A DNA stretch of 64,000 nucleotides, from the NCBI GenBank assembly GCA_021781745.1, contig JAJXWH010000008.1, forward strand, positions 26,781-90,780. Direction: 5' to 3'. The position numbers and the translations under genes are program-made. The DNA comes from Bacillota bacterium. GTDB taxonomy: Bacteria; Bacillota; Clostridia; Clostridiales; Clostridiaceae. A model generated the notes under the pieces. It worked only from the letters and a program-made list of their open reading frames with translations, was not told the origin of the DNA and searched no databases. How positions within the stretch are numbered: position 1 is the first letter of the stretch; each line of letters opens with the position of its first letter. Shown in pieces: positions 4,557 through 54,376 of the stretch.

Positions 4557-6410
4557 GTGAAAGAAAATGGGAAATTTAAAAGCTATAATGAATCATATAT
4601 AAGAAATGTTTTTAGGATAATTTTTATAGCCAGTGCAATTATATCTTTTGCAGTGATAGCTACAGGATTATTAGGATATAACAGTACTAAAAAATCATTA
4701 ATAGATAAATTAAAGTCCCAGGACATGGTTTTTATAGTAAAATCTATGGCGGCAAAAATAGACAGTCGTATTAGTCGTGCCGTTGAAACATCTTCTATTT
4801 TTGCTAAAGATCCTTTAAATATTGAATGGATAAATAGTGAAGAAAAAGATAAGGAAGCAGGAAATTTAGTTTTAAATAAAATAGATAGTATTGCAAAATC
4901 ATATGATTACAGTAATTCTTTTATAGCAAGTATAAAGACAAGGCACTATTATTATAGAGAGAATTCAGGTGAAAATAATAAAGGCTTTGTGACATTATCA
5001 GAAAGTAATCCAGCAGATAGCTGGTTTGATGCAATGATAAAATCAAAAAAGGCCATAGAGCTTAATGTAGATTATAATAGGAATATGGATGATTATTTTC
5101 TTTTTGTAAATACAATTATGGGAAGCGTAGATAAACCAGTAGGAATAACTGGAGTCGGTTTAAGTCTTAATGAGATTACAAAGGAATTTAGAGATTTTAA
5201 AGTCGGAAATAAAAGCAATCTATGGATGGTAGATGATGAGGGCGTTATAAAATTATCTGATGCACGTGAAGATATAGGTAAAAATTATGAAGATTTCCTA
5301 CCAAAAGATGTGGTTAATGTGATTCGGAGTAAGCCTATGGAAGGTGAAGAAAATGTTAAGGTATCACAATATACTAATAGTAATAATGAAATTATAGATT
5401 ACGCGTATTGTAAATTAAGTTCAAGCGACTGGATTCTGTTTTATGAAATTCCGCGAACAGAAAATTTGTCTTTAATTGATACACTAAAAAATAATACAAT
5501 TCTTAATGTGATTTTAGTTTTAATATCATTCATGGTATTATTCTACGTTATTTCTAAGAAAATAGCTGATCCATATAAGCAAGCAATGCTAATTAATATG
5601 GAGCTTGAAGAGAAAGTTAATACAAGAACCCAAGAGTTAAAAGAATCTAATCAAAAAGTAAATGATAGCATAGAATATGCAAAAAGACTACAGGAATCAA
5701 TTTTACCATCTGAAGAAGATTTGAAAAGAGCATTTAAAGAAAATTTTGTTATTTGGAAACCTAAAGATACTGTTGGAGGAGATTTCTTCTGGCTGCAGGA
5801 AATTGATGATATGATTATCTTAGCCGTTGGAGATTGTACAGGTCACGGAGTTCCAGGTGCATTCATGACAATGACTGTAAATGCAATATTGCATAATATA
5901 GTAACAACAATAAGTAACGATGACCCAAGTATAATTATTAAAGAGCTGCATACACAGCTTAAGCAATCTCTAAATAAAAATTCAAATCCAAATAGTGTAG
6001 ATGATGGCTTGGATATTGCAATATTTTGTATAAAAAATAAATCAAAGTTACTGTACCTAGGTGCAAATATAGAATTATATGTTAAACGCGATAAAGAAGT
6101 TAAAATTATAAAGCCTCAGAGCAAAGGGGTTGGCTATAGTTATATTAAGTTAAAAGAGTCTTTAGATAATGATATTTTTGAAATTCAAGAGGATGATATA
6201 TTTATTGTCACTACTGATGGTTTTATACATCAAAATGGAGGTGCAAAGAATTATCCTTTTGGAAGAAAACGACTATATAATATGCTAAAAGAATGTTCCA
6301 CTGAGGATTTTAATTCTATGAAAGCTAATTTTGAAGCAACATTAGGATTATATATGAATAAAGAGCAACAAAGAGATGATATTACTGTATTTGCATTTAA
6401 AGTAAAATAA
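4557..6410 (+). CDS. siaA: SiaA-like Cache sensor / SpoIIE (PP2C) phosphatase
   Basis: TM - extracellular Cache-like domain - TM - coiled coil - PP2C motifs GDCTGHGVPGA, DDGLD, TTDG, QRDDIT. Confidence 0.85.
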   Translation: MKENGKFKSYNESYIRNVFRIIFIASAIISFAVIATGLLGYNSTKKSLIDKLKSQDMVFIVKSMAAKIDSRISRAVETSSIFAKDPLNIEWINSEEKDKEAGNLVLNKIDSIAKSYDYSNSFIASIKTRHYYYRENSGENNKGFVTLSESNPADSWFDAMIKSKKAIELNVDYNRNMDDYFLFVNTIMGSVDKPVGITGVGLSLNEITKEFRDFKVGNKSNLWMVDDEGVIKLSDAREDIGKNYEDFLPKDVVNVIRSKPMEGEENVKVSQYTNSNNEIIDYAYCKLSSSDWILFYEIPRTENLSLIDTLKNNTILNVILVLISFMVLFYVISKKIADPYKQAMLINMELEEKVNTRTQELKESNQKVNDSIEYAKRLQESILPSEEDLKRAFKENFVIWKPKDTVGGDFFWLQEIDDMIILAVGDCTGHGVPGAFMTMTVNAILHNIVTTISNDDPSIIIKELHTQLKQSLNKNSNPNSVDDGLDIAIFCIKNKSKLLYLGANIELYVKRDKEVKIIKPQSKGVGYSYIKLKESLDNDIFEIQEDDIFIVTTDGFIHQNGGAKNYPFGRKRLYNMLKECSTEDFNSMKANFEATLGLYMNKEQQRDDITVFAFKVK

Positions 6411-6482
6411 AGCACAATCAAGAAAATAATAAATTAGTATGCTATTTTCTTAATTGTGCTCAAGTTTGGGGTGATATATATT

Positions 6483-7232
6483 ATGGTATCAATTAAATCT
6501 GATTTTTTTGAAGTTGAAAAATCCTTATTAAGTGGTGCAAAAGAATTAATTAATAGTAATAAATATGATGAAGAGACTATATTAGAAAACTTTTCAATAA
6601 TTGTTGAGCAATTTGATAAGTTAATAAGAGATGTTGAGAAGATAATTAAAATAAGCGATGGGCAGCAAGAATATCTTCATAGAATACAAAATGACTTAAA
6701 AAAAGAAATTGAAGATAGAATTAGGGCAGAAGAGAAATTGAAATATTTTGCAGCAATAGATACACTTACGGGTTTTTATAATAGAGGAATGGGATTAACA
6801 CTGCTGGAAAATGAGATTAAAACAATACGAAGGAAAAAGGGCGTTTTTTCAATATGCTATATTGACCTTAATGGGCTAAAATATGTAAATGATAATTTTG
6901 GACACGCAGAGGGAGACGAACTTCTGGTAAATGCATGTGAATTTATAAAAGAAGGCGTAAGAGATAATGACATTTTATGCAGAGTAGGCGGCGATGAGTT
7001 TATAATTCTTTTACCGGAGCTTAAGCAAGAAGAAGTAGAAAAGATTATGGAGAAGATTATGATGAATATAGATATTGAAAATAAAAGTCAAATAAGACCT
7101 TATGATCTCTCTTTCAGCTATGGAATAGTTCAAGTCGAATGTAATAATTGCAGAACTATTGATGAGATTATTCAAATGGCAGATGCAAATATGTATGAGT
7201 ATAAGAAAAAGCATAAAAAATTAATGCAATAA
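6483..7232 (+). CDS. siaD: SiaD-like diguanylate cyclase
   Basis: N-terminal coiled coil plus GGDEF with RxxD I-site (RDND). ATG 6483 follows GGGGTGA. Confidence 0.85.
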   Translation: MVSIKSDFFEVEKSLLSGAKELINSNKYDEETILENFSIIVEQFDKLIRDVEKIIKISDGQQEYLHRIQNDLKKEIEDRIRAEEKLKYFAAIDTLTGFYNRGMGLTLLENEIKTIRRKKGVFSICYIDLNGLKYVNDNFGHAEGDELLVNACEFIKEGVRDNDILCRVGGDEFIILLPELKQEEVEKIMEKIMMNIDIENKSQIRPYDLSFSYGIVQVECNNCRTIDEIIQMADANMYEYKKKHKKLMQ

Positions 7233-7322
7233 ATGTTTGCCCTTAGACAGAATAAATATTTTCCCACTGGTAAAACTACTTATAAATATTGATTAAGTAC
7301 AAAGATATAGGAGGAAAATGTA

Positions 7323-7478
7323 ATGGAGAGACTGAAAAAAGGTGAGCATGAAAAAGCTATGGAGAAAGCAAAAGAAATGCTAGATAGAGGCTGTGGAATG
7401 GGTGAGATAGTAGAAAAAACTAACCTTAGTGAAGAAAATGTATTAAAAGCAAAAAGAAAATGGGAAGATCAATCTTAA
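7323..7478 (+). CDS. Small 51-aa helical/HTH-like protein, absent from the ORF track
   Basis: AGGAGG 8 nt before ATG; MERLKKGEHEKAMEKAKEMLDRGCGMGEIVEKTNLSEENVLKAKRKWEDQS. Confidence 0.8.
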   Translation: MERLKKGEHEKAMEKAKEMLDRGCGMGEIVEKTNLSEENVLKAKRKWEDQS

Positions 7479-7709
7479 AATATAAATGAGCTATGAAACA
7501 TAACTGCTATTAAGTTTTCTATAATGGACTTAATAGCAGTTGTTTTATAATTGAGTTCATACATTAGTGAGATTCTAGTTAGTTATTGAATAAGCAGAGT
7601 TTATGATTGAATATCTAAAATAAAAATGAAAAAACTTTTGAATATTTATGCAAAAAATATGAATATGTTGTATAATATAATTACAAATTGAGAAGCAGAG
7701 GAAAAGAAG

Positions 7710-8150
7710 ATGTGTAATATAACATATAAATATATAGACTATAAAAGCAAAGAATTCAATCAGGTAATAGATTTAAGATTTAATGTACTCTTTAAACCAT
7801 ATGGTAAAATAGCAAAATATAATTATGATGAATTAGATGATGTAAGCTTTCATTTAATTGCATTAAGTAATTATAAAGTCATAGGATACTCAAGAATGAC
7901 TAATGTTAATGGGAAAGGCAAAATTACGAATGTAGTTGTTGACCCTGAATATATAAAAAGGGGAATTGGACTAGAGATGTTAAAAAGGCATATTATTAAA
8001 GCCGAAATTAATGATATAAATTATTTATACTTAAATGCACGTTTAGATACAGTTAATTTTTACAACAAAGTAGGATTTGAGTGTAAAGGAAGTGTCTTTT
8101 TATCCGAAAAAAGCGGTTTGATGTTGCAAGAAATGTATTATACTTTATAA
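7710..8150 (+). CDS. GNAT family N-acetyltransferase (ElaA/YjcF-like)
   Basis: VVVDPEYIKRGIGLEML acetyl-CoA motif; LNARLDTVNFYNKVGF. Confidence 0.9.
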   Translation: MCNITYKYIDYKSKEFNQVIDLRFNVLFKPYGKIAKYNYDELDDVSFHLIALSNYKVIGYSRMTNVNGKGKITNVVVDPEYIKRGIGLEMLKRHIIKAEINDINYLYLNARLDTVNFYNKVGFECKGSVFLSEKSGLMLQEMYYTL

Positions 8151-8186
8151 ATTTCCAGGAATGAGTAAACATCGTATTAAAATATA

Positions 8187-8228
8187 AACTCAATGATACT
8201 AAGCATTAAAGTATTGTTGAGTTTTTTA
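8187..8228 (+). terminator. Intrinsic terminator after the GNAT gene
   Basis: AAACTCAATGATACT / AGTATTGTTGAGTTT followed by a T tract. Confidence 0.7.
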
Positions 8229-8473
8229 TTTAAATAATTACCTAACTCAAGTAAATAAAAAAGCATCTGGAAAAATAAGTAATTTTATGGTAAAATTATG
8301 GTGTCTGTATAAAATAAAAAAAGTTTGTATAAAATTTGTAATATAACAGTCAGTGGTTAAGAATAAAAAGATTAACTGAGTTAAATAAAAGTAAAGTTGA
8401 AAATTATAAGTCTTAGACGTGATTATATGAAAAGAGATGCACTTAAAATTAGTACAGATAAGGAGTAATGATA

Positions 8474-21268: not shown

Positions 21269-21471
21269 AATTGTGAAAAAATAAAAAAATACAGAAAATA
21301 ATTAAAATAGTATTGATTTATGAAGGAAAGTATTGTACATTAAGTATGTAAAATAAAGAGCTATATATTGCAGAATCAGTACTGTATGTTATTTTTGTAT
21401 TGTTATCATTAAGATAGTGGTATGTAAAAAGAGATTAATGTACTAGTATGCCATATATAAATAATGAAATT

Positions 21472-21543
21472 TTACCCGTATATGCTTAGAAATAAGGTCT
21501 AAGCGTCTCTACCGGACTACCGTAAATTGTCTGACTATGGGTG
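21472..21543 (+). ncRNA. Purine riboswitch aptamer, guanine-type (C74)
   Basis: P1 ACCCGUA/UAUGGGU; P2 GCUUAGA/UCUAAGC with loop ending GG; J2/3 UCUCUAC; L3 CCGUAAA; GAC-UAU discriminator C. Confidence 0.95.
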
Positions 21544-21565
21544 TTTATAAGTATTTTGATAGCTT

Positions 21566-21733: not shown

Positions 21734-23071
21734 TTGGACAATGTATCAAAAAAAACGGTAAAAACAATGGAGGAGAACGGTATGTTAGAAAAATTATTTC
21801 ATTTATCAAAAAACAATACAACTGTTAAGACAGAAATATTAGCTGGTATTACAACTTTTTTAACTATGGCATATATTTTAGTGGTTAATCCAGGTATTTT
21901 AAGTCAATCAGGGATGGATAAATCGGCAGTATTTACAGCAACAGCTTTAGCTTCTTGTATTGGAACTTTAATTATGGCTTTTGTTGCAAATTATCCATTT
22001 GGTATGGCACCAGGAATGGGGTTAAATGCTCTTTTCACATTTACAATTTGTTTAACAATGAAGTTTTCATGGCAAACAGCATTAGCGGCTTCATTAATAG
22101 AAGGACTTATATTTTTAGCGCTTAATTTATTTAAAGTTAGGCAGGCAATTATTGATAGTGTTCCACAAACTTTAAAATATGCGATCAGCATAGGTATTGG
22201 ATTTTTTATAGCTTTTATCGGATTACAAGATTCAGGTATAATTGTAGCTAATCAAGCTACATTAGTTGGTTTAGCTAGTTTAAAGAGTGTAACAGTTTTG
22301 TTAGCATTCTTTGGAGTAGTATTAATTGCAGTATTATATCACAAGAATGTAAAAGGATCATTTATTATAGGTATGCTTGTTGTATATGTACTTGGTATAA
22401 TATTTGGAGTGGCTCAGTTACCAAGCGGAATAGTATCTATGCCTCCATCGGTTGCACCAGTATTTATGCAATTTGATTTTAAGAGCGCTATGGTAATAGG
22501 AATAATTCCAGCTATTATGACTATGTTATTTATAGATATATTTGATAGTATTGGTACTTTAATTGGTTTAGCTTCAAAAGCTGGATACTTAGATGAAAAA
22601 GGTAATGTTCTTAATGCAGATAAAGTTTTAACAGCAGATGCTGTTGGATCAACAATAGGTGCTTGTTTAGGAACTTCTACACCAGTTGCATTTATTGAAT
22701 CAGCTTCAGGTATTGCTGAAGGTGGAAGAACTGGTTTAGCTGGGTTAACAATAGCTGCATTATTCTTCTTATCATTATTCTTTTCACCAATATTAACTGT
22801 TATTCCTGGTTTTGCATCAGGTCCAGTTCTAATTGTTTTAGGATTACTAATGATGGAACCAATAACAAAGATTGATTTTTCAGATTTTACTGAAGGATTA
22901 CCTGTATTCCTTACTTTAATATTAACACTTTTAACATATTCAATTACAGATGGTTTAGCATTTGGATTTATATCATATGTGTTAATAAAAATATTTACAG
23001 GTAAATCAAAAGAGGTTCCTGTTTCAATGTATGTTATTTCAGTATTATTTATAGTAATGTTTGCTATTTAA
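21734..23071 (+). CDS. NCS2/AzgA-family guanine/hypoxanthine permease
   Basis: TEILAGITTFLTMAYI, APGMGLNA, IESASG, GGRTGL. Two SD-backed starts (TTG 21734, ATG 21782). Confidence 0.93.
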   Translation: MDNVSKKTVKTMEENGMLEKLFHLSKNNTTVKTEILAGITTFLTMAYILVVNPGILSQSGMDKSAVFTATALASCIGTLIMAFVANYPFGMAPGMGLNALFTFTICLTMKFSWQTALAASLIEGLIFLALNLFKVRQAIIDSVPQTLKYAISIGIGFFIAFIGLQDSGIIVANQATLVGLASLKSVTVLLAFFGVVLIAVLYHKNVKGSFIIGMLVVYVLGIIFGVAQLPSGIVSMPPSVAPVFMQFDFKSAMVIGIIPAIMTMLFIDIFDSIGTLIGLASKAGYLDEKGNVLNADKVLTADAVGSTIGACLGTSTPVAFIESASGIAEGGRTGLAGLTIAALFFLSLFFSPILTVIPGFASGPVLIVLGLLMMEPITKIDFSDFTEGLPVFLTLILTLLTYSITDGLAFGFISYVLIKIFTGKSKEVPVSMYVISVLFIVMFAI

Positions 23072-36019: not shown

Positions 36020-36781
36020 TTATTTTAAAAATTTATAATCTACTCCTTTAAAAAGCAAATCATCTAAAATATATGAATTAACATTTATAGATGAATCAAT
36101 TACTGGTTCTTGCAAATATTTATTCTCGCCTAAATAGTCGTAATCCTTATATACAAAGTCTAAAGAGGAATTGGTATTTGTATTTCTTAAAGCCTGACTA
36201 AGATTCATCTCCCAATCAAAAAAATCATTAAGAGATGTATTCTTGATTGCATATGTAGGTTGACTAATCCATCTAATACCATTATATCTTTTTGCTTCAT
36301 ATTCTGAGACTATACCTTTAATTTTTTCTTCTAACCCAATCAAGCCACAGAATTTATTACTAATAATTAGTTCTTTTATGGATCTAAATTTAATATATTC
36401 TACAGGGAATGAAATCATCTTAAGAATTTCTAATAAGTCGTTATACAAGCCTTCTTCCATGGACATATAAATAACTTCATTATTTTTAATGCCCTCATAC
36501 ATATAAAAATATATGCTTATAAAGAAATGGTTATTTTTTAAATGATAAAACTTTGAATTAGTTTTTGACTTTAATGTATCATTTAAAGTCCATTGTGTAG
36601 AATTATTTACATTTTTACTACAAAAAACACACTTGTAGATTAAGTTATCAAGTAATTGACTTAAGTTAATTACTTCAACATCTAATAAGCTTTGATCTTT
36701 CTTTACTATTAACTCTTCCAACCTATTTCTGACTTTTCCAATGTTGTAGTTTAAATTACAATTATCACATGAAAAATCCAT
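36020..36781 (-). CDS. Spo0E-like N-terminal domain fused to a MEDS-like sensory domain
   Basis: IGKVRNRLEELI..LLDVEVINLSQLLDNLI (Spo0E-like); YMYEGIKNNE..IYMS..YNGIRWI..WE (MEDS-like). Confidence 0.65.
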   Translation of the reverse strand: MDFSCDNCNLNYNIGKVRNRLEELIVKKDQSLLDVEVINLSQLLDNLIYKCVFCSKNVNNSTQWTLNDTLKSKTNSKFYHLKNNHFFISIYFYMYEGIKNNEVIYMSMEEGLYNDLLEILKMISFPVEYIKFRSIKELIISNKFCGLIGLEEKIKGIVSEYEAKRYNGIRWISQPTYAIKNTSLNDFFDWEMNLSQALRNTNTNSSLDFVYKDYDYLGENKYLQEPVIDSSINVNSYILDDLLFKGVDYKFLK

Positions 36782-41308: not shown

Positions 41309-42283
41309 TTATGCTCCCTTATCAATCTTTTCATTCATGGTATTAGTCCATTTACCACATCTATCTCCAAAACAGCCTATTATAGTATCTTCATTTTTTA
41401 TTCTTACAACTTCACATCTATTGGAGCAGCCTTCACATTCAAAACTACTAGAAATGAAGTTTGAATCTGCTAGATCAAAACCTCTAAAGTTAGTTACACC
41501 TGTTTTATCAACTGTTTCTTTAGCAATAATTGCAGCGCCAATGGCACCCATGACATTATAATGTTCAGGTACGTATACTTCGCATCCTAAAGCTTTTTCA
41601 AAAGAAACCTTCATTCCTTTATTAGCAGCAACACCGCCTTGAAAGAATATTTTAGGGCATATTTCTTTGCCTTTACCGATATCATTAAGATAATTTCTAA
41701 CAAGAGCCTCACACAATCCGTTTATTATATCAGCTTCGTTATAGCCAAGCTGTTGCTTATGTATCATATCGGATTCTGCAAAAACCGCACATCTTCCAGC
41801 TATTCGAAGTGGAGTTGTTGAATTTAATGCATAATCACCAAACTCTTCTATTGGAATACCTAATCGTTCGGCCTGCCTATCAAGGAAAGAGCCAGTTCCG
41901 GCCGCACAAACATTATTCATAGCAAAATCTATGGCAATGCCATCTTTTAATATTATTATTTTAGAATCCTGCCCACCTATTTCTAATATTGTTCTAACGT
42001 CTTTATCTATTTCTAATGCTGCACATGCATGAGCTGTAATTTCGTTTTTTACTGCATCTGCGCCAATTATAAATGACGCTATCTGTCTTCCGCTGCCTGT
42101 AGTTCCAACAGCATTTATTTCTTCATCTTTATATTTTTTCTTTAGAATTTTGCAACCTTCTTGAATTGCATTTATTGGCTTTCCTTTTGTTCTCAAATAT
42201 AGTTTTTCAACTACATTCATGCTACTATCTAAAAGAACAATATCAGTACTTACTGAGCCAACATCAACACCTAGATAATACAT
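41309..42283 (-). CDS. Acyl-CoA dehydratase activase (BadF/BadG/BcrA/BcrD ATPase, HgdC-like)
   Basis: GVDVGSVST, EIGGQDSK, CAAGTG, GRCAVFAESD, QGGVA; C-terminal CEGCSNRC..DRC. Confidence 0.92.
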   Translation of the reverse strand: MYYLGVDVGSVSTDIVLLDSSMNVVEKLYLRTKGKPINAIQEGCKILKKKYKDEEINAVGTTGSGRQIASFIIGADAVKNEITAHACAALEIDKDVRTILEIGGQDSKIIILKDGIAIDFAMNNVCAAGTGSFLDRQAERLGIPIEEFGDYALNSTTPLRIAGRCAVFAESDMIHKQQLGYNEADIINGLCEALVRNYLNDIGKGKEICPKIFFQGGVAANKGMKVSFEKALGCEVYVPEHYNVMGAIGAAIIAKETVDKTGVTNFRGFDLADSNFISSSFECEGCSNRCEVVRIKNEDTIIGCFGDRCGKWTNTMNEKIDKGA

Positions 42284-43361
42284 TTTGTTTTCTCCTTTCT
42301 AATAAGTCTAAAAACGCTTCTATCCTTGTAACATATCCACCTTCTCCAGTCATTTCATCAACTACAAGAGTTAAGATAGGGAAATCTTTATCTTTAGATA
42401 TAGTAGGAAGCATAGCTTTGCATACAATTTCAGGCATGCATCCCATTGGGAATATCTGAATGGCGCCGTCAAATCCTTCTTGTGTAGCCAGTACTGCTTC
42501 ACCAATACACTCCCTTGCATGGCCGCCAATATATAATGGTAGATATTCTTTGGAGGCTTTCCGTATATCTAATGAATTAATTCCAATAACTGACATGAGT
42601 GAGTCTTTTGCCCACCAACTTGGAGTAAGCCTTCTTTGAGTTGAAACCCCGTATTCCATAAGTTTATCTTCAATAAAGAGATTTGAGAATGGCTCTATTA
42701 TTGTATAAATTTCGCCTATAATAGCTATTTTTAATGGATTCCTATCTTTATATATTTCTATGGAACTAAGACTTTTATCATAGGTATTTAATATTCGTAT
42801 CATTTCATTTGGATTATTACTATTTGCTGCATCAATTTTGCATTTATTTAGCAATCTTTTACATTCGCCTTTGTTTTTTTCATATCCAGCCAAATAATGC
42901 GCTTTTGCCTCGATTTTATCAATAAGATTTAAAACCTTAAATCCGATGCGTAAAGCATTTAATTTTTGAACTGTAGTTTTATTACTATTTGAAGATATAA
43001 AGGATATCCTATTTAAAAATTCTTTTAAGCCTATTTCTGAGGGCTTATCTAATACAATAAAATTTAAATTATGACCTAGTTTTTTTAAGATATTGATTTG
43101 TAATTCACAATATTCGCCATATCTGCAAGGGCCGCAGCTTCCTGTAATTATTATTGTATCTGCTCCGTTCTCAATTCCTTGAATATAATTTCCCATCATA
43201 AGCTTAAATGGTAAACACATGTCCTCAGGTGAATACATGGAACCTATTTCCAAAGATTTCTTGCTGTTGAATTCTGGGATTAGGTAATCTACACCAAGGG
43301 CATCAAAAGTAGCCTTGGCAACGAGATATACATTTCCAAGGTGAGGTGTCATAATTTTCAT
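42264..43361 (-). CDS. 2-hydroxyacyl-CoA dehydratase/reductase-like (HGD-D) subunit
   Basis: CLPFK, GPCRYGEY, GEIY, FPMGCMPE, DEMTGEGGYVTRIEAF. Confidence 0.82.
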   Translation of the reverse strand: MKIMTPHLGNVYLVAKATFDALGVDYLIPEFNSKKSLEIGSMYSPEDMCLPFKLMMGNYIQGIENGADTIIITGSCGPCRYGEYCELQINILKKLGHNLNFIVLDKPSEIGLKEFLNRISFISSNSNKTTVQKLNALRIGFKVLNLIDKIEAKAHYLAGYEKNKGECKRLLNKCKIDAANSNNPNEMIRILNTYDKSLSSIEIYKDRNPLKIAIIGEIYTIIEPFSNLFIEDKLMEYGVSTQRRLTPSWWAKDSLMSVIGINSLDIRKASKEYLPLYIGGHARECIGEAVLATQEGFDGAIQIFPMGCMPEIVCKAMLPTISKDKDFPILTLVVDEMTGEGGYVTRIEAFLDLLERRKQNVLSRC

Positions 43362-43362
43362 G

Positions 43363-44253
43363 TTATTGCCTCCTTTCTAACATGTCTACAAAAGCCTCTA
43401 TTCTAGTATCAAATCCAGATTCTCCAGTATGTTCGTCAACCTTTAATATTAAAAAAGGAAAATCTTTAGTTTTTTCTTTTATTAAGTCTATAACTACAGA
43501 ATCTATGCCACATGCAAAGGATGATATGTATACTATGCCATCTACTTTTTTGTTTTCTGATAAATATGTTGATACTCCATATGCATTTCTTGCAAAAGTC
43601 CAAAAAGGTCTTTTAAATAAATCTTTTGTTTTAAGAAAGATAGAATCTTTATCTATAAATTCTTCTGTTATAATTCCAACGCCAAGCATATTGAATTTTT
43701 TTACTAAATTCATATTAATAAAATTATCATAAACATTATAAGGGTGGCCAATTAAGGCTATATTTATGTTATAACCTTCACTTTTTATTCCTATTTGAGA
43801 CTTATTTTGCTCGTTTAATGCTTCATAATAGGCTCTCTTAATTTTTTTCTTATTATTTGTTATCATGCTTCCAGTAGAAAGCACCCATTTATATAATTTT
43901 TCCTTTGATGTTGCATAAATAGGAGCCATAGTAACTTTGGGCATGTTAGGTATACTATTTACAATCATTTCTGGAAGTCCACAAAATTTAGGACAAATAA
44001 ATTCATGCTCTGAAAGCTGCATAATTCTTGGGATAACGATAATATCGCATTTATCTTTAATAGCCACTACATGGCCATGGAAAATTTTCATTGGTAAACA
44101 TGCCTCATTTACACAATGTTTTACGCCTGCATCTAAGATTTGTTTATTTGTATCAGGGGATGTAACTATTTCTGCTCCTAGTTCATAAAAGAATTTTTCA
44201 AGGAAGCCAGAATATTTATAATTTAATAGTCCTTTAGGAATTCCAACCTTCAT
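43363..44253 (-). CDS. DUF2229 activase-related protein
   Basis: VGIPKGL, EACLPMKIFHGH, CPKFCGLP, GHPYN, SFACGID, DEHTG..TRIEAF. Confidence 0.82.
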   Translation of the reverse strand: MKVGIPKGLLNYKYSGFLEKFFYELGAEIVTSPDTNKQILDAGVKHCVNEACLPMKIFHGHVVAIKDKCDIIVIPRIMQLSEHEFICPKFCGLPEMIVNSIPNMPKVTMAPIYATSKEKLYKWVLSTGSMITNNKKKIKRAYYEALNEQNKSQIGIKSEGYNINIALIGHPYNVYDNFINMNLVKKFNMLGVGIITEEFIDKDSIFLKTKDLFKRPFWTFARNAYGVSTYLSENKKVDGIVYISSFACGIDSVVIDLIKEKTKDFPFLILKVDEHTGESGFDTRIEAFVDMLERRQ

Positions 44254-44344
44254 ATGTAATTCACTCCTATAAAATTTAAGCTCATTTTTGTATTTTTCAC
44301 ATAAATTACAAAATTATTCATGTTAATAAAAAAATTATATTTAA

Positions 44345-44450
44345 GAAAAAAGCCTTTGGCTTTTCTAAAGAATACTTTTAGAAATTGCCAAAGGCGGTTT
44401 TATCTTTAACTTTTCACTTACCACTTATAACTTGTAACTTGTTATTTCTT
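44345..44450 (-). repeat. Second copy of the heptamer-periodic REP-like element
   Basis: Shares AAGTGAAAAGTTAA and GAAA(A)GCCA(A/G)AGGCTT, at about 40-nt spacing, with 14085-14154. Confidence 0.6.
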
Positions 44451-44469
44451 CTCTGATTTACCGCTAATT

Positions 44470-45651
44470 TTAGTTTATATACCAATTCCCAGTAGCAACT
44501 ATCATAGCTAAAAGTTTTAGTGTATTTTCATAAAAGGTACATTTGTTTATTGGTTTTTGTATTAAAGTTTCCCATAGGGAAATAGTCCAATGATCGTGCT
44601 CTTTTTCTATAAGAGAACTAACTAGAAAAGGAGCTATAAATGATAAGTTATTTTTTGAACCAAAAGAAGATCCGGGAGGGCCATTAGCTATATAATAGCC
44701 AGAGCTTATATTTTCTGGTTTATATGAAGTATTTTTCTTAATCCAATTATTGAGAGTACGCAATTCTTCTGTTACCGGGGTTTTATTTATAATAATATCC
44801 ATAGAGTAACGCCATGGAATTCTGCAGCTGTTAAAGTAATAATCTCCATCATGAACAGTTTCTAAGATCTTGATTTTAGGTGCTATATAAGTATCGTTAT
44901 ACTTTATGAAAAAATCGGGCATAAGCCCGTTTGATTTACTTTCTTTCTGCATTTGTTTAGAAATTATTGAGTCAATCTTATTAATTACCATTTGCCATTT
45001 ATGAGTGTTTTGTACATCAAATTTACAAAATTCCCGGATATGATACTTTAAAAAATCTGAACTTCTAGTTACATATTGGAATTTATTAATTTTCGATCCC
45101 TTTACCCAATCTCCCAGAGTTAAGATATAATCATTTTCATTTACACAGCTATCCATTAGAGCATTAATTCTTTTGATTGCTTCATTTTTGTAGCTGATTT
45201 TATCATTTTCTCCCCAAATTTTATGTGCAAGAAGCAGCCCGTAACTAATGTCCATATCCCCGTCAGTTGCAGAAGAGGTTTCAGCTTCAGAATTAATAAT
45301 ATTGCCATTAGAATCTTTAATTTGTTGCCAGGCCATTAAATTGGGATTATAAAAACTTGGGTAAGATTTTATATAATTATATATTGCTGTAAAGTGAATT
45401 TTAGCAGTAAGATCAAATTTACTCATCAGCGGGAATATTATCATACCATAGCCCATTGCCTCTGAGACTGTAACAGCATTTTTAGGAGCAGGCTGATCCA
45501 GGGCATAAAATAGATATTCCTTTAGAGTAGGAAAATCATTTGTAGGCCTTAAGTAGCGTATCTTCCAATCATTATAGAAAGATAGTAACTCTAAATTTAA
45601 GCTGCTTTGGGAATAGTAATTAACTAATGTGTCATTATAAATTATGGTCAC
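44470..45651 (-). CDS. Glycoside hydrolase family 8 (GH8b-type), no signal peptide
   Basis: TVSEAMGYGM (acid Glu), SATDGDMDI, LE....YYFNSCRIPWR. Confidence 0.9.
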   Translation of the reverse strand: MTIIYNDTLVNYYSQSSLNLELLSFYNDWKIRYLRPTNDFPTLKEYLFYALDQPAPKNAVTVSEAMGYGMIIFPLMSKFDLTAKIHFTAIYNYIKSYPSFYNPNLMAWQQIKDSNGNIINSEAETSSATDGDMDISYGLLLAHKIWGENDKISYKNEAIKRINALMDSCVNENDYILTLGDWVKGSKINKFQYVTRSSDFLKYHIREFCKFDVQNTHKWQMVINKIDSIISKQMQKESKSNGLMPDFFIKYNDTYIAPKIKILETVHDGDYYFNSCRIPWRYSMDIIINKTPVTEELRTLNNWIKKNTSYKPENISSGYYIANGPPGSSFGSKNNLSFIAPFLVSSLIEKEHDHWTISLWETLIQKPINKCTFYENTLKLLAMIVATGNWYIN

Positions 45652-45677
45652 CGCCTTTCTATTAATTTATTTAATAA

Positions 45678-47939
45678 TCAAGATGCATTTACTGATTTAA
45701 GGATATTATCTAACATATCATTGGTGAAATCGCCATTACTTATAACAGGTAATTTATTAATAGGGATGTATTTAAGGTAATTTATAATTTCTTCTTGAGC
45801 TTCCTTGTTACCTGTAATCAATTCTGCTATATTTTGAAGTATTGGTTCAATAACAGCTCTAGCATTTGGGTTAGTTAAGAATTCACCAATTAGTGTATTT
45901 TCAGCATATTTAGGAACTGGTACATAAGCTGATTGAATGTATATATTTTTAGAAAGTATTATATCCCTTGAAGATTTACCAATTAATATTTCATATGGAC
46001 CACTTTCTACAACCCAAGAGTTTGTTGCTCTATCATAGTAAGAGAAATCTCTTGTGCTAAGATAGAAGGTTACTTCTTTTTCTTCTCCAGGGAAAAGTGG
46101 CATTTTTGTAAAAGCTTTCAACTCTTTTTCAGGTCTTGGTGCTGAACTAATTATATTTCTTACATAAAGTTCTACAACCTCTTTACCAAAATATTTGCCA
46201 GTATTTTTTACTTTTAGTTTTACTTCAAGAATATCAGTATCCCTTATTACATCTTTGCTTAGTGTTAAGTCACTATAGTTAAAAGTAGTATAAGATAATC
46301 CAAAACCAAAAGGAAATTCAACAGGAATTTCTTTCTTATCATAATATCTGTAGCCAACAAAAATGCCTTCTCTATATTCTAGGTGGTTTTCGGGACTAAC
46401 ATTATCTAGGTAAGTAGGGGTGTCGGACAACTTCATGGGAAATGTAGATGACAACTTCCCAGATGGAGTTACTATTCCAAATAAAATATTAGCAATAGCG
46501 CTTCCATTTGCTTGACCTGCAAGCCATGCCTCTAAAATAGCATCAGGGTATTTAGACCATGATGAAGTAGTTAGCGGTGAACCATTGTTAAGTACTAAAA
46601 TAACATTTTTGTGTATTTTGCTAATTTCTTTAATCAGCTTTATTTGATTTTCAGGTAAATTAGCATCTTTGTTATCTTCATTTTCTGCATCGTAGGAGTC
46701 AGGAGTCCCTGCAAATATTATAACCACATCAGATTCTTTGGCAACTCTCTTTGCTTCTCTAAGGAGAGTATTATCATCTTCGACTGTATCATCAGAGAAA
46801 ATATTATATCCTTTTGCATAATTGATTTTGATTGAATTTCCAACTAATTTAGCTATTTCATTATAAGGATTTTCAAGTATCGTAGGGACGACAGAGGAAG
46901 TACCAGTGCCTTGATATTTTGGATTCTTTGCATACTCTCCAATTATCGCTATTCTCTTATTTTTTAATCTTTCTCTTTTTAGTGGTAATATGTTATGTCT
47001 GTTTTTTAGAAGAACCATGCAATTTTCAGCTGCTTCCCTTGCTAAATCATGGTGTTTCTCTTTATCATAAGTATCATATGAATTTTGATTTTGAGCAATT
47101 CTAAATACTATATTTATTATATATTCCACAGCCTTATTTAAGACTGCTGGATCTAAAGCACCATTTAGAATAGCTTCAACAATTGCTTTACTATTAATGT
47201 ATGAATTAGGTAATTCTAAATTTAAGCCTGCCATCAAGGAGTCTATTATCGAATCTATACCATACCAGTTTGATAGCACTAATCCATCAAAATTCCATTG
47301 ATTCCTCAAAAGATCAGTTAAGAAAAGTTTATTTTCTGCACAAGGCATTCCATTTATATTATTGTGAGCAGCCATAACTGCAAAGGGATGTCCTTTTTTT
47401 ACGGCTATTTCAAAATTATATAAATAGATTTCGTTTAATGGTTGATCACCAATAATATTATTAATATTTTGTCTGTGGTATTCTTGATTGCTTCCGGCAT
47501 AATCTTTTATACAGGCACCTACACCTTCACTTTGAAGTCCTTGAATAAAAGATGCAGAAATTTCCCCACTTAGTACAGGATCTTCTGAAAAGTATTGGAA
47601 GTTTCTCCCGCTTAAGGGAGAGCGTTGAATATTCATAGAAGGTCCTAAAAGTAGATTTACATTTTCTGCTACGCATTCTTCTGCAATAGCTTTACCAACA
47701 GCATAAGCTAAGTCTACATCCCAAGATGATGATAAAGCAGAAGGTGTAGGAAAACACGTTGAAGGAATAATGTCAGATAGGGTAGCAGATCTTTTTACAA
47801 GACCATTTGAGCCATAAGCTAAGGTTAATGAAGGAATCCCAAGTCTTTCTATATCTTGAGTTTCCCAAGTATTTTTGCATGAGCACATCGATGCTTTTTC
47901 TTCAAGTGTCAATTGGTTGATAATATTTCTTATATCCAC
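45678..47939 (-). CDS. GH3 beta-glucosidase-fold protein with degenerate active site
   Basis: GH3 architecture (LTLEEKA, PLSGRNFQYFSEDP, MVLLKN, YREGIFVGYRYY, FPFGFGLSYT), but SNW replaces SDW and KD replaces KH. Confidence 0.88.
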   Translation of the reverse strand: MDIRNIINQLTLEEKASMCSCKNTWETQDIERLGIPSLTLAYGSNGLVKRSATLSDIIPSTCFPTPSALSSSWDVDLAYAVGKAIAEECVAENVNLLLGPSMNIQRSPLSGRNFQYFSEDPVLSGEISASFIQGLQSEGVGACIKDYAGSNQEYHRQNINNIIGDQPLNEIYLYNFEIAVKKGHPFAVMAAHNNINGMPCAENKLFLTDLLRNQWNFDGLVLSNWYGIDSIIDSLMAGLNLELPNSYINSKAIVEAILNGALDPAVLNKAVEYIINIVFRIAQNQNSYDTYDKEKHHDLAREAAENCMVLLKNRHNILPLKRERLKNKRIAIIGEYAKNPKYQGTGTSSVVPTILENPYNEIAKLVGNSIKINYAKGYNIFSDDTVEDDNTLLREAKRVAKESDVVIIFAGTPDSYDAENEDNKDANLPENQIKLIKEISKIHKNVILVLNNGSPLTTSSWSKYPDAILEAWLAGQANGSAIANILFGIVTPSGKLSSTFPMKLSDTPTYLDNVSPENHLEYREGIFVGYRYYDKKEIPVEFPFGFGLSYTTFNYSDLTLSKDVIRDTDILEVKLKVKNTGKYFGKEVVELYVRNIISSAPRPEKELKAFTKMPLFPGEEKEVTFYLSTRDFSYYDRATNSWVVESGPYEILIGKSSRDIILSKNIYIQSAYVPVPKYAENTLIGEFLTNPNARAVIEPILQNIAELITGNKEAQEEIINYLKYIPINKLPVISNGDFTNDMLDNILKSVNAS

Positions 47940-48204
47940 TCAAATATCACCTTGTCTTTCTTAATAGTATTTATTTATAATTTACAATTAAACTTCAACA
48001 TAATTAAAAATTAATGCCATTATTATATTATTTAAAAGAAACAATATATATTACCTATGTTGATTATAAATTACAATTAAATTAATATCAGTGGTTAAAA
48101 AGAACCTGATAATATTTAACGATTTAAAATTTTAGGTATTTTCTTTTTTTTATAAGTTATTGTATTATGAAATATAGGAAATATTATTTTGTCTAGGGGG
48201 AAAC

Positions 48205-48990
48205 ATGGAGAGAAAAGCAGTTTTTTTTGATATTGATGGAACTTTATATAACAATAAAATAGGTGTACCAGAAAGTGCAGCTCAGGGAATTAAAGAATTA
48301 AAAGATAATGGACATTATGCATTTATATCAACAGGAAGAGCACGGGCAATGATTCCACAGGATTTAATAGATTTAGGTTTTGATGGAGTATTAGCAGCTT
48401 GCGGTGCTTATGTGGAATATAAAGGAGATGTCATTTATAATATTGATTTAGAAAAAGAAATAGCTAATAGTGCAATTAACGCATTAAGAAAGCATAACGT
48501 ACTTTGTGTATTGGAAGGACAGGATTATTTATACATGGATGAGGATGATTTTTCTCAAGGGGGATTATTTTCTGTGGCAAAATTTAAAGAAAAGCATGGG
48601 GATAAAATAAAACCAATTACTGGAGAAGAGTATCACATTAATAAAATCACTTGCAGAGTTACCAAGGATAGTAATTTTGAGGAGGCATTTAAAGCTATTG
48701 AAAACGAGTTTGATTGTATATATCACAATACAGAATTTATTGAGTTAGTTCCTAAAGGATTTACAAAGGTAAAAGGAATAGAAGCAATAATAAAACATTT
48801 GGGTGTATATATTGATAATACATATGCATTTGGAGATAGTTTAAATGACATTGATATGCTTAAGTATGTGAAATATGGAATTGCTATGGGTAATAGCAAT
48901 CCAGAAGTTCTTAAAATTGTGCAATATAGAACAGATACTATTGAGAATGGTGGAATTTATAAAGGATTAAAACAATTTAAATTAATATAA
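48205..48990 (+). CDS. Cof-type HAD-IIB hydrolase
   Basis: FFDIDGTL, STGR, TKVKG, FGDSLNDIDML. Confidence 0.93.
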   Translation: MERKAVFFDIDGTLYNNKIGVPESAAQGIKELKDNGHYAFISTGRARAMIPQDLIDLGFDGVLAACGAYVEYKGDVIYNIDLEKEIANSAINALRKHNVLCVLEGQDYLYMDEDDFSQGGLFSVAKFKEKHGDKIKPITGEEYHINKITCRVTKDSNFEEAFKAIENEFDCIYHNTEFIELVPKGFTKVKGIEAIIKHLGVYIDNTYAFGDSLNDIDMLKYVKYGIAMGNSNPEVLKIVQYRTDTIENGGIYKGLKQFKLI

Positions 48991-49260
48991 TAATGAATCA
49001 AATACTTAAATTAAGAAGGCTGCTAAAATTAAATTTGTTGAGTAGTATTTTAGTTTACACAAATTTAAATCATATATAATTCAGTAAAAATTACTTAATT
49101 TTACTTTGTTAAGTATAAAGTAAATTAAGTATATTATATAAGTAAGTGCAGAAGACTATATTATAATTCAAAAGTTTAAGTAGAAGAAAAGATTATCAAT
49201 TAATAAAATACTTTGGTATAGAATAAGGGAAAATTATTTCTTTTTTTTTATTTAAGATAT

Positions 49261-49287
49261 ATAATTATCTATAGATAATTATTATCT
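49261..49287. promoter_or_regulatory. Fur/PerR-like box upstream of nox
   Basis: AGATAAT-T-ATTATCT (7-1-7, 49273-49287) overlapping a perfect 22-bp palindrome (49261-49282). Confidence 0.45.
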
Positions 49288-49324
49288 TTAAAAAGTGATT
49301 ATTGAAAATCAAAGGAGGAATTAT

Positions 49325-52576: not shown

Positions 52577-54376
52577 ATGAAGGGGACAGTTGTTTCAACT
52601 TGGATGAGAACTAATAGTAAACTATTCGGAAACTCAGTTGTTAATGATGCAATGGATAATGTTGGCTGGGGAAGCAACAAAATATTTTCACCTATTGAGA
52701 ATGTTAACGATGATGAGGTTAAAAAAGTAATATCATATATAGCTCAAAAGCAAAACATGGGGGTAGGTGAGTTATGGAGATTAATTGGGCAGGATAATAT
52801 AAAAACTTTTAGTCATGACTATCCTGCATTTTTCAAACATGATAATGTTTATTCTTTTTTTAAGTCAATGTTTGATGTACATATAGTAATGACAAAGAAA
52901 TTTTCAGGAGCGAAGCCACCTTTAGTATTAATTGAACCTATTTCAAATAGAGAAGCTATATTTAGTTATAATTCTTCTAGAGGAATGTTTGACTATTTTC
53001 TTGGGATGTTAAATGGGTCATGCGAGCATTTTAACGAGAAAGTAGAGGTAAAAGAGGTTTTAAGAACTGATACAGAATTAAAATTAAAACTCACTTTTGA
53101 TAAAGATATATATTATAATAAGAAATATTTCTTTAATAGATTATTTTCATTAGGATTTATTAAGGATTTTGGAGCTAAAATAGGATTATTTACATTTGTA
53201 TTGTCAGCGGTGGTACTAGTACCTATGTTAGGTATGGACAATATTATTAAGAGTATTATTGGAAGCATTGCAGCTGGCTTTGGAGCTTTCATAGGAGCTT
53301 CTCTAATGATGTCTCCTTTAAATCAAATAAAAGAAGAAATAAATAGAATTATTAATAATCAATATAATATTGATGGTAGCATTGCAACAAACGACTTTTT
53401 TGAGGAAATATTTAAACTCCTTAAAGAGCACAAGAAAGTTATACAAGCGGATTTTGTAGGATTTAAGGGTGTTACAGATGAAATGAGTACTTTTGTAGAT
53501 ACTATTAATAAAATATCAGATACTATGAATCATACATCTAATGAAATAAGTGGTGTTGTTGAACAAGTAGCAGAAGGTGCTATTACTCAAGCACAAAATA
53601 CAGATAGTGCAGTGCAAGCACTTAATGGAAATATTCAAGCATTAAGGAACATAGTTGAAAATGAAAATTTAAATAAGCTAGAACTTGAAGCGGCAATGTA
53701 TAAAATAAATAATAGTTATGAAAATGTAGATAACTCAAGCAAAAACATTTTAACTTCTCTAGAAAAATTTGAAGATGTTAAGGTTAAAGGAACACACCTT
53801 GAAGAGAGAGCTAGAGGTATAACGCAAATTATTTCAATCGTTTCAGGAATATCGGAACAAACTAATTTATTAGCATTAAATGCGTCTATTGAAGCAGCAA
53901 GAGCTGGTGAACAAGGTCGAGGTTTTGCTGTTGTAGCTGAATCAATTAGGAAATTAGCTGAACAATCTAAAGATGCAGTTTTAGAAATTAACTCTAATTT
54001 AGAGCAATTTGTAAAAGAAATAAAATTACTAGTAGGTCAAATTGATAATCAATATGATATATTAGCAAAAGAGACTGACAGCTTAAAAACAGTTAGAGAT
54101 ATAAGCTTTGAAGCCAATCAGTCTGTACAAAGTGTAGCTGGTTCTATGATAGAAACTATAAATAAGTTAAATACAGAAGCTGATTCAATCTCTAATATTT
54201 ATGATGGTATTGAATCTTTAGCTGCAATTGCAGAAGAAAATTCAGCATCATCAGAAGAAGTAAGTGCTAGCGTAATAAATTACACAAATGAAATTAAAAA
54301 ACTAATAGAAAACATATATGACTTTAAAGGCATAACTGAATCCTTTAAAAATGATTTAGAAAAGTATAATATTTAG
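52577..54376 (+). CDS. H-NOX (heme NO/O2-binding) methyl-accepting chemotaxis protein
   Basis: W9, N74, H102, Y131-S133-R135, Y140; MCP hairpin [24 protein letters not shown]. Confidence 0.95.

Follow-up and report, generated by a model that had tools for sequence, protein, structure and literature searches.

A Clostridium GH3 protein without its catalytic nucleophile is maintained by purifying selection

The locus and the active site of its GH3 protein

The DNA studied here is a 64,000-nucleotide stretch from a member of the Clostridiaceae deposited as Bacillota bacterium (GenBank assembly GCA_021781745.1, contig JAJXWH010000008.1, positions 26,781 to 90,780 of the forward strand), and we refer to the whole of it as the window. 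On its minus strand lies a gene for a protein of glycoside hydrolase family 3 (GH3), followed directly by a gene for a family 8 glycoside hydrolase (GH8). The coordinates of both genes, of their key residues, and of the associated signals are collected in Table 1. The original prediction for this locus, made from the DNA sequence alone, was that the GH3 is a pseudoenzyme kept by selection and that it serves as a lectin, scaffold, or regulator for the GH8 in an intracellular or spore-associated module.

Table 1. Features of the GH3-GH8 locus, in window coordinates
Feature	Position	Strand	Basis
GH3 (BglB-type) open reading frame, predicted pseudoenzyme, 753 amino acids (aa), GTG start, no signal peptide	45678..47939	-	Pfam, 7MS2 match
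YGSNG (GH3 residues 42-46) in place of DGPHG; Y42 for the sugar-binding Asp (TnBgl3B D58)	47802..47816	-	codons, alignment
GH3 D146 (GAT) for the His of the Lys-His pair (TnBgl3B H164)	47502..47504	-	codons, alignment
GH3 H192 (CAC) for the active-site Tyr (TnBgl3B Y210)	47364..47366	-	codons, alignment
GH3 N224 (AAC) for the catalytic nucleophile Asp (TnBgl3B D242)	47268..47270	-	codons, alignment; PMC6929035
GH3 E419, kept equivalent of the acid/base Glu; flanking ESEGFDR degenerated to DAENEDN	46683..46685	-	alignment
GH8 (glucanase/chitosanase subfamily), 393 aa, no signal peptide, catalytic residues intact	44470..45651	-	Pfam, 5XD0, 1V5C
GH8 E64, proton donor in SEAMGYGM (ChoK Glu122)	45460..45462	-	alignment; PMC9615241
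GH8 E264, catalytic base (ChoK Glu309)	44860..44862	-	alignment; PMC9615241
Ribosome-binding site AAGGTGA, 7 nt upstream of the GH3 GTG; conserved in orthologues	47947..47953	-	
Orthologue-conserved block upstream of GH3, TATAAT at 48027-48022; putative promoter or operator	48010..48057	-	
GH3-GH8 junction, 26 bp, AGAAAGG, no terminator	45652..45677	-	
Intrinsic terminator after GH8, long hairpin then U-run; -21.7 kcal/mol, z = -5.3	44346..44395	-	
Cof-type HAD-IIB phosphatase, divergent; syntenic GH3 neighbor in most of the derived subclade	48205..48990	+	

The GH3 reading frame and all of its domains are intact, as had been predicted. The Glyco_hydro_3 N-terminal, C-terminal, and Fn3-like domains (PF00933, PF01915, and PF14310) score 124.3, 182.3, and 86.5 bits, respectively, all above the curated cut-offs of 27, 31, and 25, and residues 1-751 match BglB of Acetivibrio thermocellus (7MS2) with an E value of 8e-226. 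The protein thus has full-length homology with the BglB-type GH3s (BglB 7MS2; PSTG1 8J9F/9LQL; Bgl3B 2X40-42), with which it shares the three domains, a C-terminal helical extension, and a cytoplasmic character without a signal peptide; its AlphaFold model compares with their structures at a template modeling (TM) score of about 0.81. The AlphaFold2 model has a mean predicted local distance difference test (pLDDT) value of 74.5, with active-site loops of low confidence. A canonical member of the same clade (P0019), modeled with the same alignment, reached 81.0 with equally weak loops, indicating that the gap in pLDDT reflects alignment depth and is no evidence of disorder. We also considered the best-scoring NCBIfam model, NF041610, which bears an arabinopyranosidase naming; at 681 bits against a cut-off of 1300, the window GH3 is not a member.

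We mapped the -1 subsite by a phmmer alignment to Bgl3B of Thermotoga neapolitana (TnBgl3B, 2X40), in which the catalytic pair is Asp242/Glu458 (PMC6929035). Four of the nine subsite residues are replaced in the window GH3, the nucleophile among them: D58 by Y42, H164 by D146, Y210 by H192, and D242 by N224. The other five are kept (R130 as R112, K163 as K145, R174 as R156, W243 as W225, and E458 as E419). Direct reading of the codons gives AAA GAT for K145-D146 and AAC TGG for N224-W225. Thus, the SNW, KD, and YGSNG motifs reported in the original prediction are exact to the base, and the replacement of the active-site Tyr is a further change that it had missed. Relative to the BglB-type enzymes, the window GH3 therefore lacks the nucleophile Asp of SDW, the His of the tandem Lys-His, the active-site Tyr, and the Asp of DGP that binds the -1 sugar, and the ESEGFDR loop has become DAENEDN. 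The acid/base Glu is still present: E419 corresponds to the Glu of ESEG in 7MS2, and we followed this closer homologue since the phmmer alignment to 2X40 places the loop differently. The whole locus from 44000 to 48400 is identical in an independent Logan contig from a mine-drainage metagenome (run X1, about 24x depth), indicating that the substitutions in the GH3 are not assembly errors.

A review of the family describes the nucleophile Asp as strictly conserved and the tandem Lys-His as conserved (PMC6987092). The same Asp-to-Asn change has been introduced as D286N into BglX of Pseudomonas aeruginosa (6R5R, 6R5P) and a GH3 of Bacteroides thetaiotaomicron (5XXN, 5XXO); according to their titles, these entries were deposited as inactive forms and used for trapping bound substrate. 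Here we equate D286 with N224 on the basis of the SDW motif that they share. The deposited proteins were mutated in the laboratory at this one residue, their pockets being otherwise intact, whereas the window GH3 has three further pocket changes. Because D-to-N is the standard inactive form and the nucleophile is called strictly conserved, we infer from homology that the window GH3 no longer cleaves glycosides by the family mechanism.

Recurrent erosion of the -1 subsite within a small clade

We compared the window GH3 with 147 diverse BglB-like GH3 representatives, each taken from a different 50%-identity cluster. All nine -1 subsite positions are at least 98% invariant in these relatives, with the nucleophile Asp kept in 147 of 148 and the His of the Lys-His pair in 147 of 147. 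Likewise, none of the 81 canonical hits of our first search deviates in the motifs. A conservation-shift analysis against the canonical hits, a set dominated by near-identical Thermotogota sequences, added nothing to the motif replacements. Only one other multiply degenerate protein was found among the diverse representatives. This protein, P0307 (823 aa, metagenomic), reads ERKHKYGSG at the subsite in place of the canonical DRKHRYDWE and is unrelated to the clade of the window GH3.

That clade is compact, with 57-97% identity and a single 50% cluster. It occurs in only three of 185,579 species genomes (Clostridium sp. LS, Clostridium sp. C2-6-12, and one Clostridium metagenome-assembled genome), its remaining members being metagenomic. 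The full set of Y42, D146, H192, and N224 is found in just one other sequence, the 97%-identical WP_008427385.1 of Clostridium sp. LS/Maddingley. The next orthologue (locus L002), which is 75% identical and syntenic, keeps SDW and KH and has Asn at D42, indicating that the catalytic loss is young and specific to one lineage. SNW and KD are thus shared within the LS/Maddingley lineage and are not fixed among orthologues at large.

A neighbor-joining tree divides the clade into a basal half, whose members have the canonical residue at each of the nine sites, and a derived half, in which the subsite has eroded independently at least eight times. At position 42, Asp has given way to N, Q, or Y in at least five lineages; the other replacements include D, N, or Y for H146, K, E, or S for R156, H or S for Y192, L for W225, and K or V for E419. 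The nucleophile itself was lost a second time, D224 having become N in P0020, and an independently eroded pair (P0013/P0015, from loci L083 and L089) carries D42Q, R112K, H146Y, Y192S, and E419K. By parsimony, the nine sites changed in a mean of 2.8 steps, compared with 5.0 for the average column, a value indistinguishable from that of random columns (p = 0.07). The steps are distributed unevenly, with 6 at D42, 5 at R156, and 4 at H146, compared with 2 at D224. That replacements are more frequent at binding residues than at the nucleophile argues against retained canonical sugar binding. Since, in addition, the replacements differ between lineages, the pattern across the clade looks like relaxation of the -1 pocket, and neither like conserved binding nor like convergent re-tooling.

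Purifying selection after the catalytic loss

We next compared the GH3 genes of the window and of strain Maddingley (locus L001), whose divergence wholly post-dates the catalytic losses that they share. The rates of non-synonymous and synonymous change (dN and dS) are 0.014 and 0.137, respectively, giving a dN/dS ratio (omega) of 0.104. This corresponds to 25 non-synonymous and 61 synonymous differences (p = 2e-22 against neutrality), and eight flanking genes compared in the same way have omega values of 0.045-0.169. There are no stop codons and no indels between the two GH3 sequences. Simulated neutral drift over this divergence would be expected to produce 12.9 premature stops, and none of 2000 replicates remained free of stops (P < 0.0005). 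The eroded pair L083/L089 has an omega of 0.132 at a dS of 0.28, and pairs with canonical sites have values of 0.155-0.20. These low values in eroded and canonical pairs alike indicate that the GH3 is held by purifying selection with or without its catalytic residues. Relative-rate tests gave no consistent acceleration on the window branch, the counts ranging with the outgroup from 64 versus 61 to 81 versus 45 changes. With essential residues lost, the reading frame intact, and selection still acting, the protein has the features of a pseudoenzyme, and the claim that it is retained and not decaying is borne out.

One might suppose instead that the gene died so recently that disabling mutations have yet to accumulate. 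The youth of the loss, with SDW and KH still present in the 75%-identical orthologue, and the widespread erosion in the clade would fit such a history. However, the window and Maddingley genes have diverged under constraint and free of stops and indels since the loss, and a second eroded lineage repeats this pattern at a dS of 0.28. A recent death of the gene is largely refuted by these observations, and we hold it to be extremely improbable.

A different way to account for the selection is that the GH3 is still an enzyme, with a remodeled pocket (Y42, D146, H192, N224, and E419) that works by another mechanism or on another substrate, for example by substrate-assisted catalysis on a 2-acetamido sugar or by an inverting or phosphorolytic reaction. 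The strength of the purifying selection would be consistent with this, as would the fact that the pocket still has its acid/base Glu, both Arg residues, the Lys, and the Trp platform. But the other eroded lineages are non-convergent and include losses of the acid/base residue itself (E419K, E419V), which looks like relaxation, the nucleophile Asp is described as strictly conserved in GH3 (PMC6987092), and the engineered D-to-N forms were deposited as inactive. We therefore consider continued catalysis improbable. The more specific proposal that Y42, D146, H192, and N224, together with the kept E419, R112, K145, R156, and W225, constitute a new active or ligand site is, in our estimation, very improbable. 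If true, it would make this the first GH3 without an Asp nucleophile, using substrate-assisted or inverting chemistry, or else a dedicated cytoplasmic sugar sensor.

A catalytically intact GH8 and its linkage to the GH3 gene

The GH8 matches a Paenibacillus sp. X4 beta-1,3-1,4-glucanase (5XD0, E 3e-65) and the chitosanase ChoK (1V5C, E 2e-50), aligning with both from end to end, and its Pfam GH8 score is 77 bits against a cut-off of 24. It has the equivalents of both catalytic Glu residues of these enzymes, in agreement with the original prediction, and also keeps the ATDGD motif (A128-D132), so that it has the sequence hallmarks of an active GH8. Its proton-donor motif and that of its clade is SEAMGYGM, compared with SEGQ/SEAHGYGM in the ChoK/5XD0 type. 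We note that three members of the GH8 clade (P0190, P0195, and P0197, from Clostridium sp. CTA-5, C. weizhouense, and C. taeniosporum) read SS[T/V/A]AMGYGM, having lost the proton-donor Glu, and also lack the first Asp of ATDGD; these may possibly be GH8 pseudoenzymes in their own right.

The ChoK and 5XD0 enzymes are secreted, whereas the window GH8 has no signal peptide. Its GTG start is preceded by an in-frame TAA at a distance of six codons and by the GH3 stop at 26 bp, which leaves no room for one, and the N-terminus has no hydrophobic stretch (maximum 12-residue hydropathy 0.4, compared with at least 2.0 in secreted relatives). The original prediction was thus right about the missing signal peptide and wrong to treat it as peculiar, because the same is true of a whole GH8 clade of about 90 cluster representatives from many Clostridium species (at least 50% identity, 385-408 aa, no hydrophobic N-terminus). 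Relatives at or below 44% identity are extended at the N-terminus (by 32-96 residues in those with a single domain), and every extension includes a hydrophobic stretch; the window clade, at about 390 aa, has no such extension. GH8 Rex enzymes, most of which lack a signal peptide (PMC6661730), provide a precedent for cytoplasmic GH8s that act on oligosaccharides. They belong to another GH8 subfamily, and no Rex structure was among the sequence hits of the window GH8 at E <= 0.01. By analogy with Rex and xylo-oligosaccharides, the window GH8 probably trims imported or internal oligosaccharides of the beta-glucan or chitosan type in the cytoplasm. A cellulose-synthase arrangement, in which a GH8 (BcsZ) is accompanied by a GH3 (BglX), was considered and rejected; the BcsZ model scores 26 bits against a cut-off of 299, and there are no synthase genes nearby.

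The GH3 gene occupies a conserved gene order, consisting of a MocR-type regulator, an NADH oxidase, the Cof-type HAD gene, the divergent GH3 gene, a variable islet, and an operon of two DUF2229 genes and an activase gene. The islet contains GH8 alone in the window and in L001 and L003 (strains LS/Maddingley), and direct GH3-GH8 adjacency is found only there. In L002, an EamA gene on the opposite strand separates GH3 from GH8, and in L085 the islet comprises a small open reading frame, an amidase, a leucine-rich repeat (LRR) protein, and GH8, placing three genes and 3.4 kb between the two. The islets of L083 (flagellin and EamA) and L089 (EamA and an LRR protein) have no GH8, nor do L004 and L084, and no GH8 remnant was detected in the GH3 loci that lack it. 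A window-type GH8 was present within 6 kb of none of 77 more distant GH3 loci, and members of the GH8 clade in C. manihotivorum, C. cavendishii, and C. perfringens stand alone in unrelated contexts. The two genes therefore do not form a module conserved by co-occurrence or adjacency across orthologues. Rather, given that the adjacency is limited to one lineage and that the GH8s sampled elsewhere stand alone, the tight pairing is a secondary, lineage-specific juxtaposition, which was probably produced by loss of EamA.

These findings bear directly on the proposal that the dead GH3 binds the GH8, or the substrate or product of the GH8, as a lectin, scaffold, or regulator. Within the window lineage, the genes are 26 bp apart with a single terminator after GH8, an arrangement conserved in L001/L003, both proteins lack a signal peptide, and lone D-to-N nucleophile mutants keep substrate binding in crystals, as judged from the titles of 5XXN, 5XXO, and 6R5R. 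However, one gene (EamA, in L002) or three (in L085) intervene outside this lineage, neither L083 nor L089, whose GH3s eroded independently, has a GH8 or a remnant of one, the sampled members of the GH8 clade elsewhere stand alone, and the sugar-binding residues D42 and H146 are themselves replaced. A partnership of this type is therefore unlikely, and the module put forward in the original prediction finds no support among relatives.

Transcription signals and neighboring genes

The close spacing of GH3 and GH8, with no terminator between them and one after GH8, predicts that the two genes are co-transcribed. Upstream of GH3 and of five GH8 orthologues, we found neither a convincing sigma-A spacing nor a motif of the sigma-E, -K, -G, or -F type. 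The suggested association with spores is thus left without support, having neither a sporulation-type promoter nor any other spore link that we could find, and is not disproved. An Rfam scan revealed no riboswitch, leader, or other RNA family near the GH3-GH8 operon, and neither a sugar transporter nor a sugar regulator is encoded within about 12 kb of GH3. In L002, the HAD/GH3 intergenic region contains a near-perfect palindrome, AATGGTATTAA-TTT-TTAATACCATT, about 70-95 bp ahead of the start of GH3 (the gene spans 6001-8259 in that locus). The palindrome is possibly an operator; it is only partly kept in the window, at about 48021-47997.

Downstream of the islet, the operon at 41309-44253 (minus strand) consists of three genes, two for DUF2229/HGD-D-like proteins and one for an acyl-CoA dehydratase activase of the BcrAD/BadFG type. 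All close relatives have it in the same syntenic place, and it is strongly constrained by purifying selection (omega 0.04-0.10). In strain Maddingley, a gene for a 760-aa methyl-accepting chemotaxis protein (L001 2311-4593) is inserted between the NADH oxidase and HAD genes. This insertion is absent from the window (48990-49295), and chemotaxis or flagellin genes also flank GH3 in L083, L090, and L091. Elsewhere in the window, we observed a purine riboswitch aptamer (RF00167, 89 bits) at 21456-21557 on the plus strand, upstream of a 445-aa open reading frame at 21734-23071. A 253-aa protein encoded at 36020-36781 on the minus strand has an N-terminal Spo0E-like domain and is much longer than typical Spo0E phosphatases, and at 52577-54376 on the plus strand a haem-NO-binding (H-NOX) domain is combined with a methyl-accepting chemotaxis signaling domain in one protein.

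Discussion

Purifying selection on a GH3 that has lost its catalytic residues makes a second, non-hydrolytic role the most likely explanation. We propose that the window GH3 descends from a cytoplasmic exo-beta-glucosidase of the BglB type and is itself catalytically dead. It belongs to a small clade confined to Clostridium, in which hydrolysis would have become dispensable and the -1 sugar pocket has been eroding independently in many lineages. What selection maintains would be a fold-dependent role that needs neither the canonical glucose pocket nor GH8; the protein might, for instance, be a partner in an oligomer or of another protein, or bind a non-canonical ligand. In the window lineage, a cytoplasmic GH8 that was evolving independently and had its catalytic residues intact would have come to lie immediately downstream when the intervening EamA gene was lost, and the two genes would now be one transcription unit. 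We lean, somewhat cautiously, towards such a moonlighting role, one that would be older than the loss of catalysis and would not require GH8.

Several points weigh against this proposal. The inactivity of the GH3 is deduced from homology, and the retention of R112, K145, R156, W225, and E419 means that the protein may have residual or altered sugar binding. The exact set of substitutions occurs in only two sequences, so that fixation is shown for one shallow lineage. The dN/dS of the catalytic domain is 0.20, somewhat above that of the other GH3 domains, with small counts. The analysis revealed nothing, for instance a newly conserved surface or a partner, that would positively identify a non-catalytic role. 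Finally, RNA of the GH3 locus was not found: the sequencing runs that contain the locus are of metagenomic DNA only, and three metatranscriptome runs of the same study, which gave no contigs from it, are uninformative on expression.

A few glycosidase families are known to include homologues that are catalytically dead. Natural pseudo-glycosidases such as the GH18 chitinase-like lectins have retained their fold under selection after catalytic loss and have kept sugar binding; they belong to another family and fold, and in the window GH3 the binding residues are eroded too. Our literature searches found no description of a bacterial GH3 pseudoenzyme. If the role of the GH3 were only marginal, the case would be a well-documented but ordinary lineage-specific enzyme loss. 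What the locus provides is a natural loss of the nucleophile, Asp to Asn, accompanied by three more changes in the pocket; the gene is still under selection, and the active site has been eroded repeatedly within its clade. It also calls for caution in annotation, since public sources call these proteins 'beta-glucosidase' or 'glycoside hydrolase family 3'. With the cultured strains LS and Maddingley sharing the allele and close relatives having intact sites, the system is tractable and may be used for asking what role the GH3 fold plays once sugar cleavage is gone.

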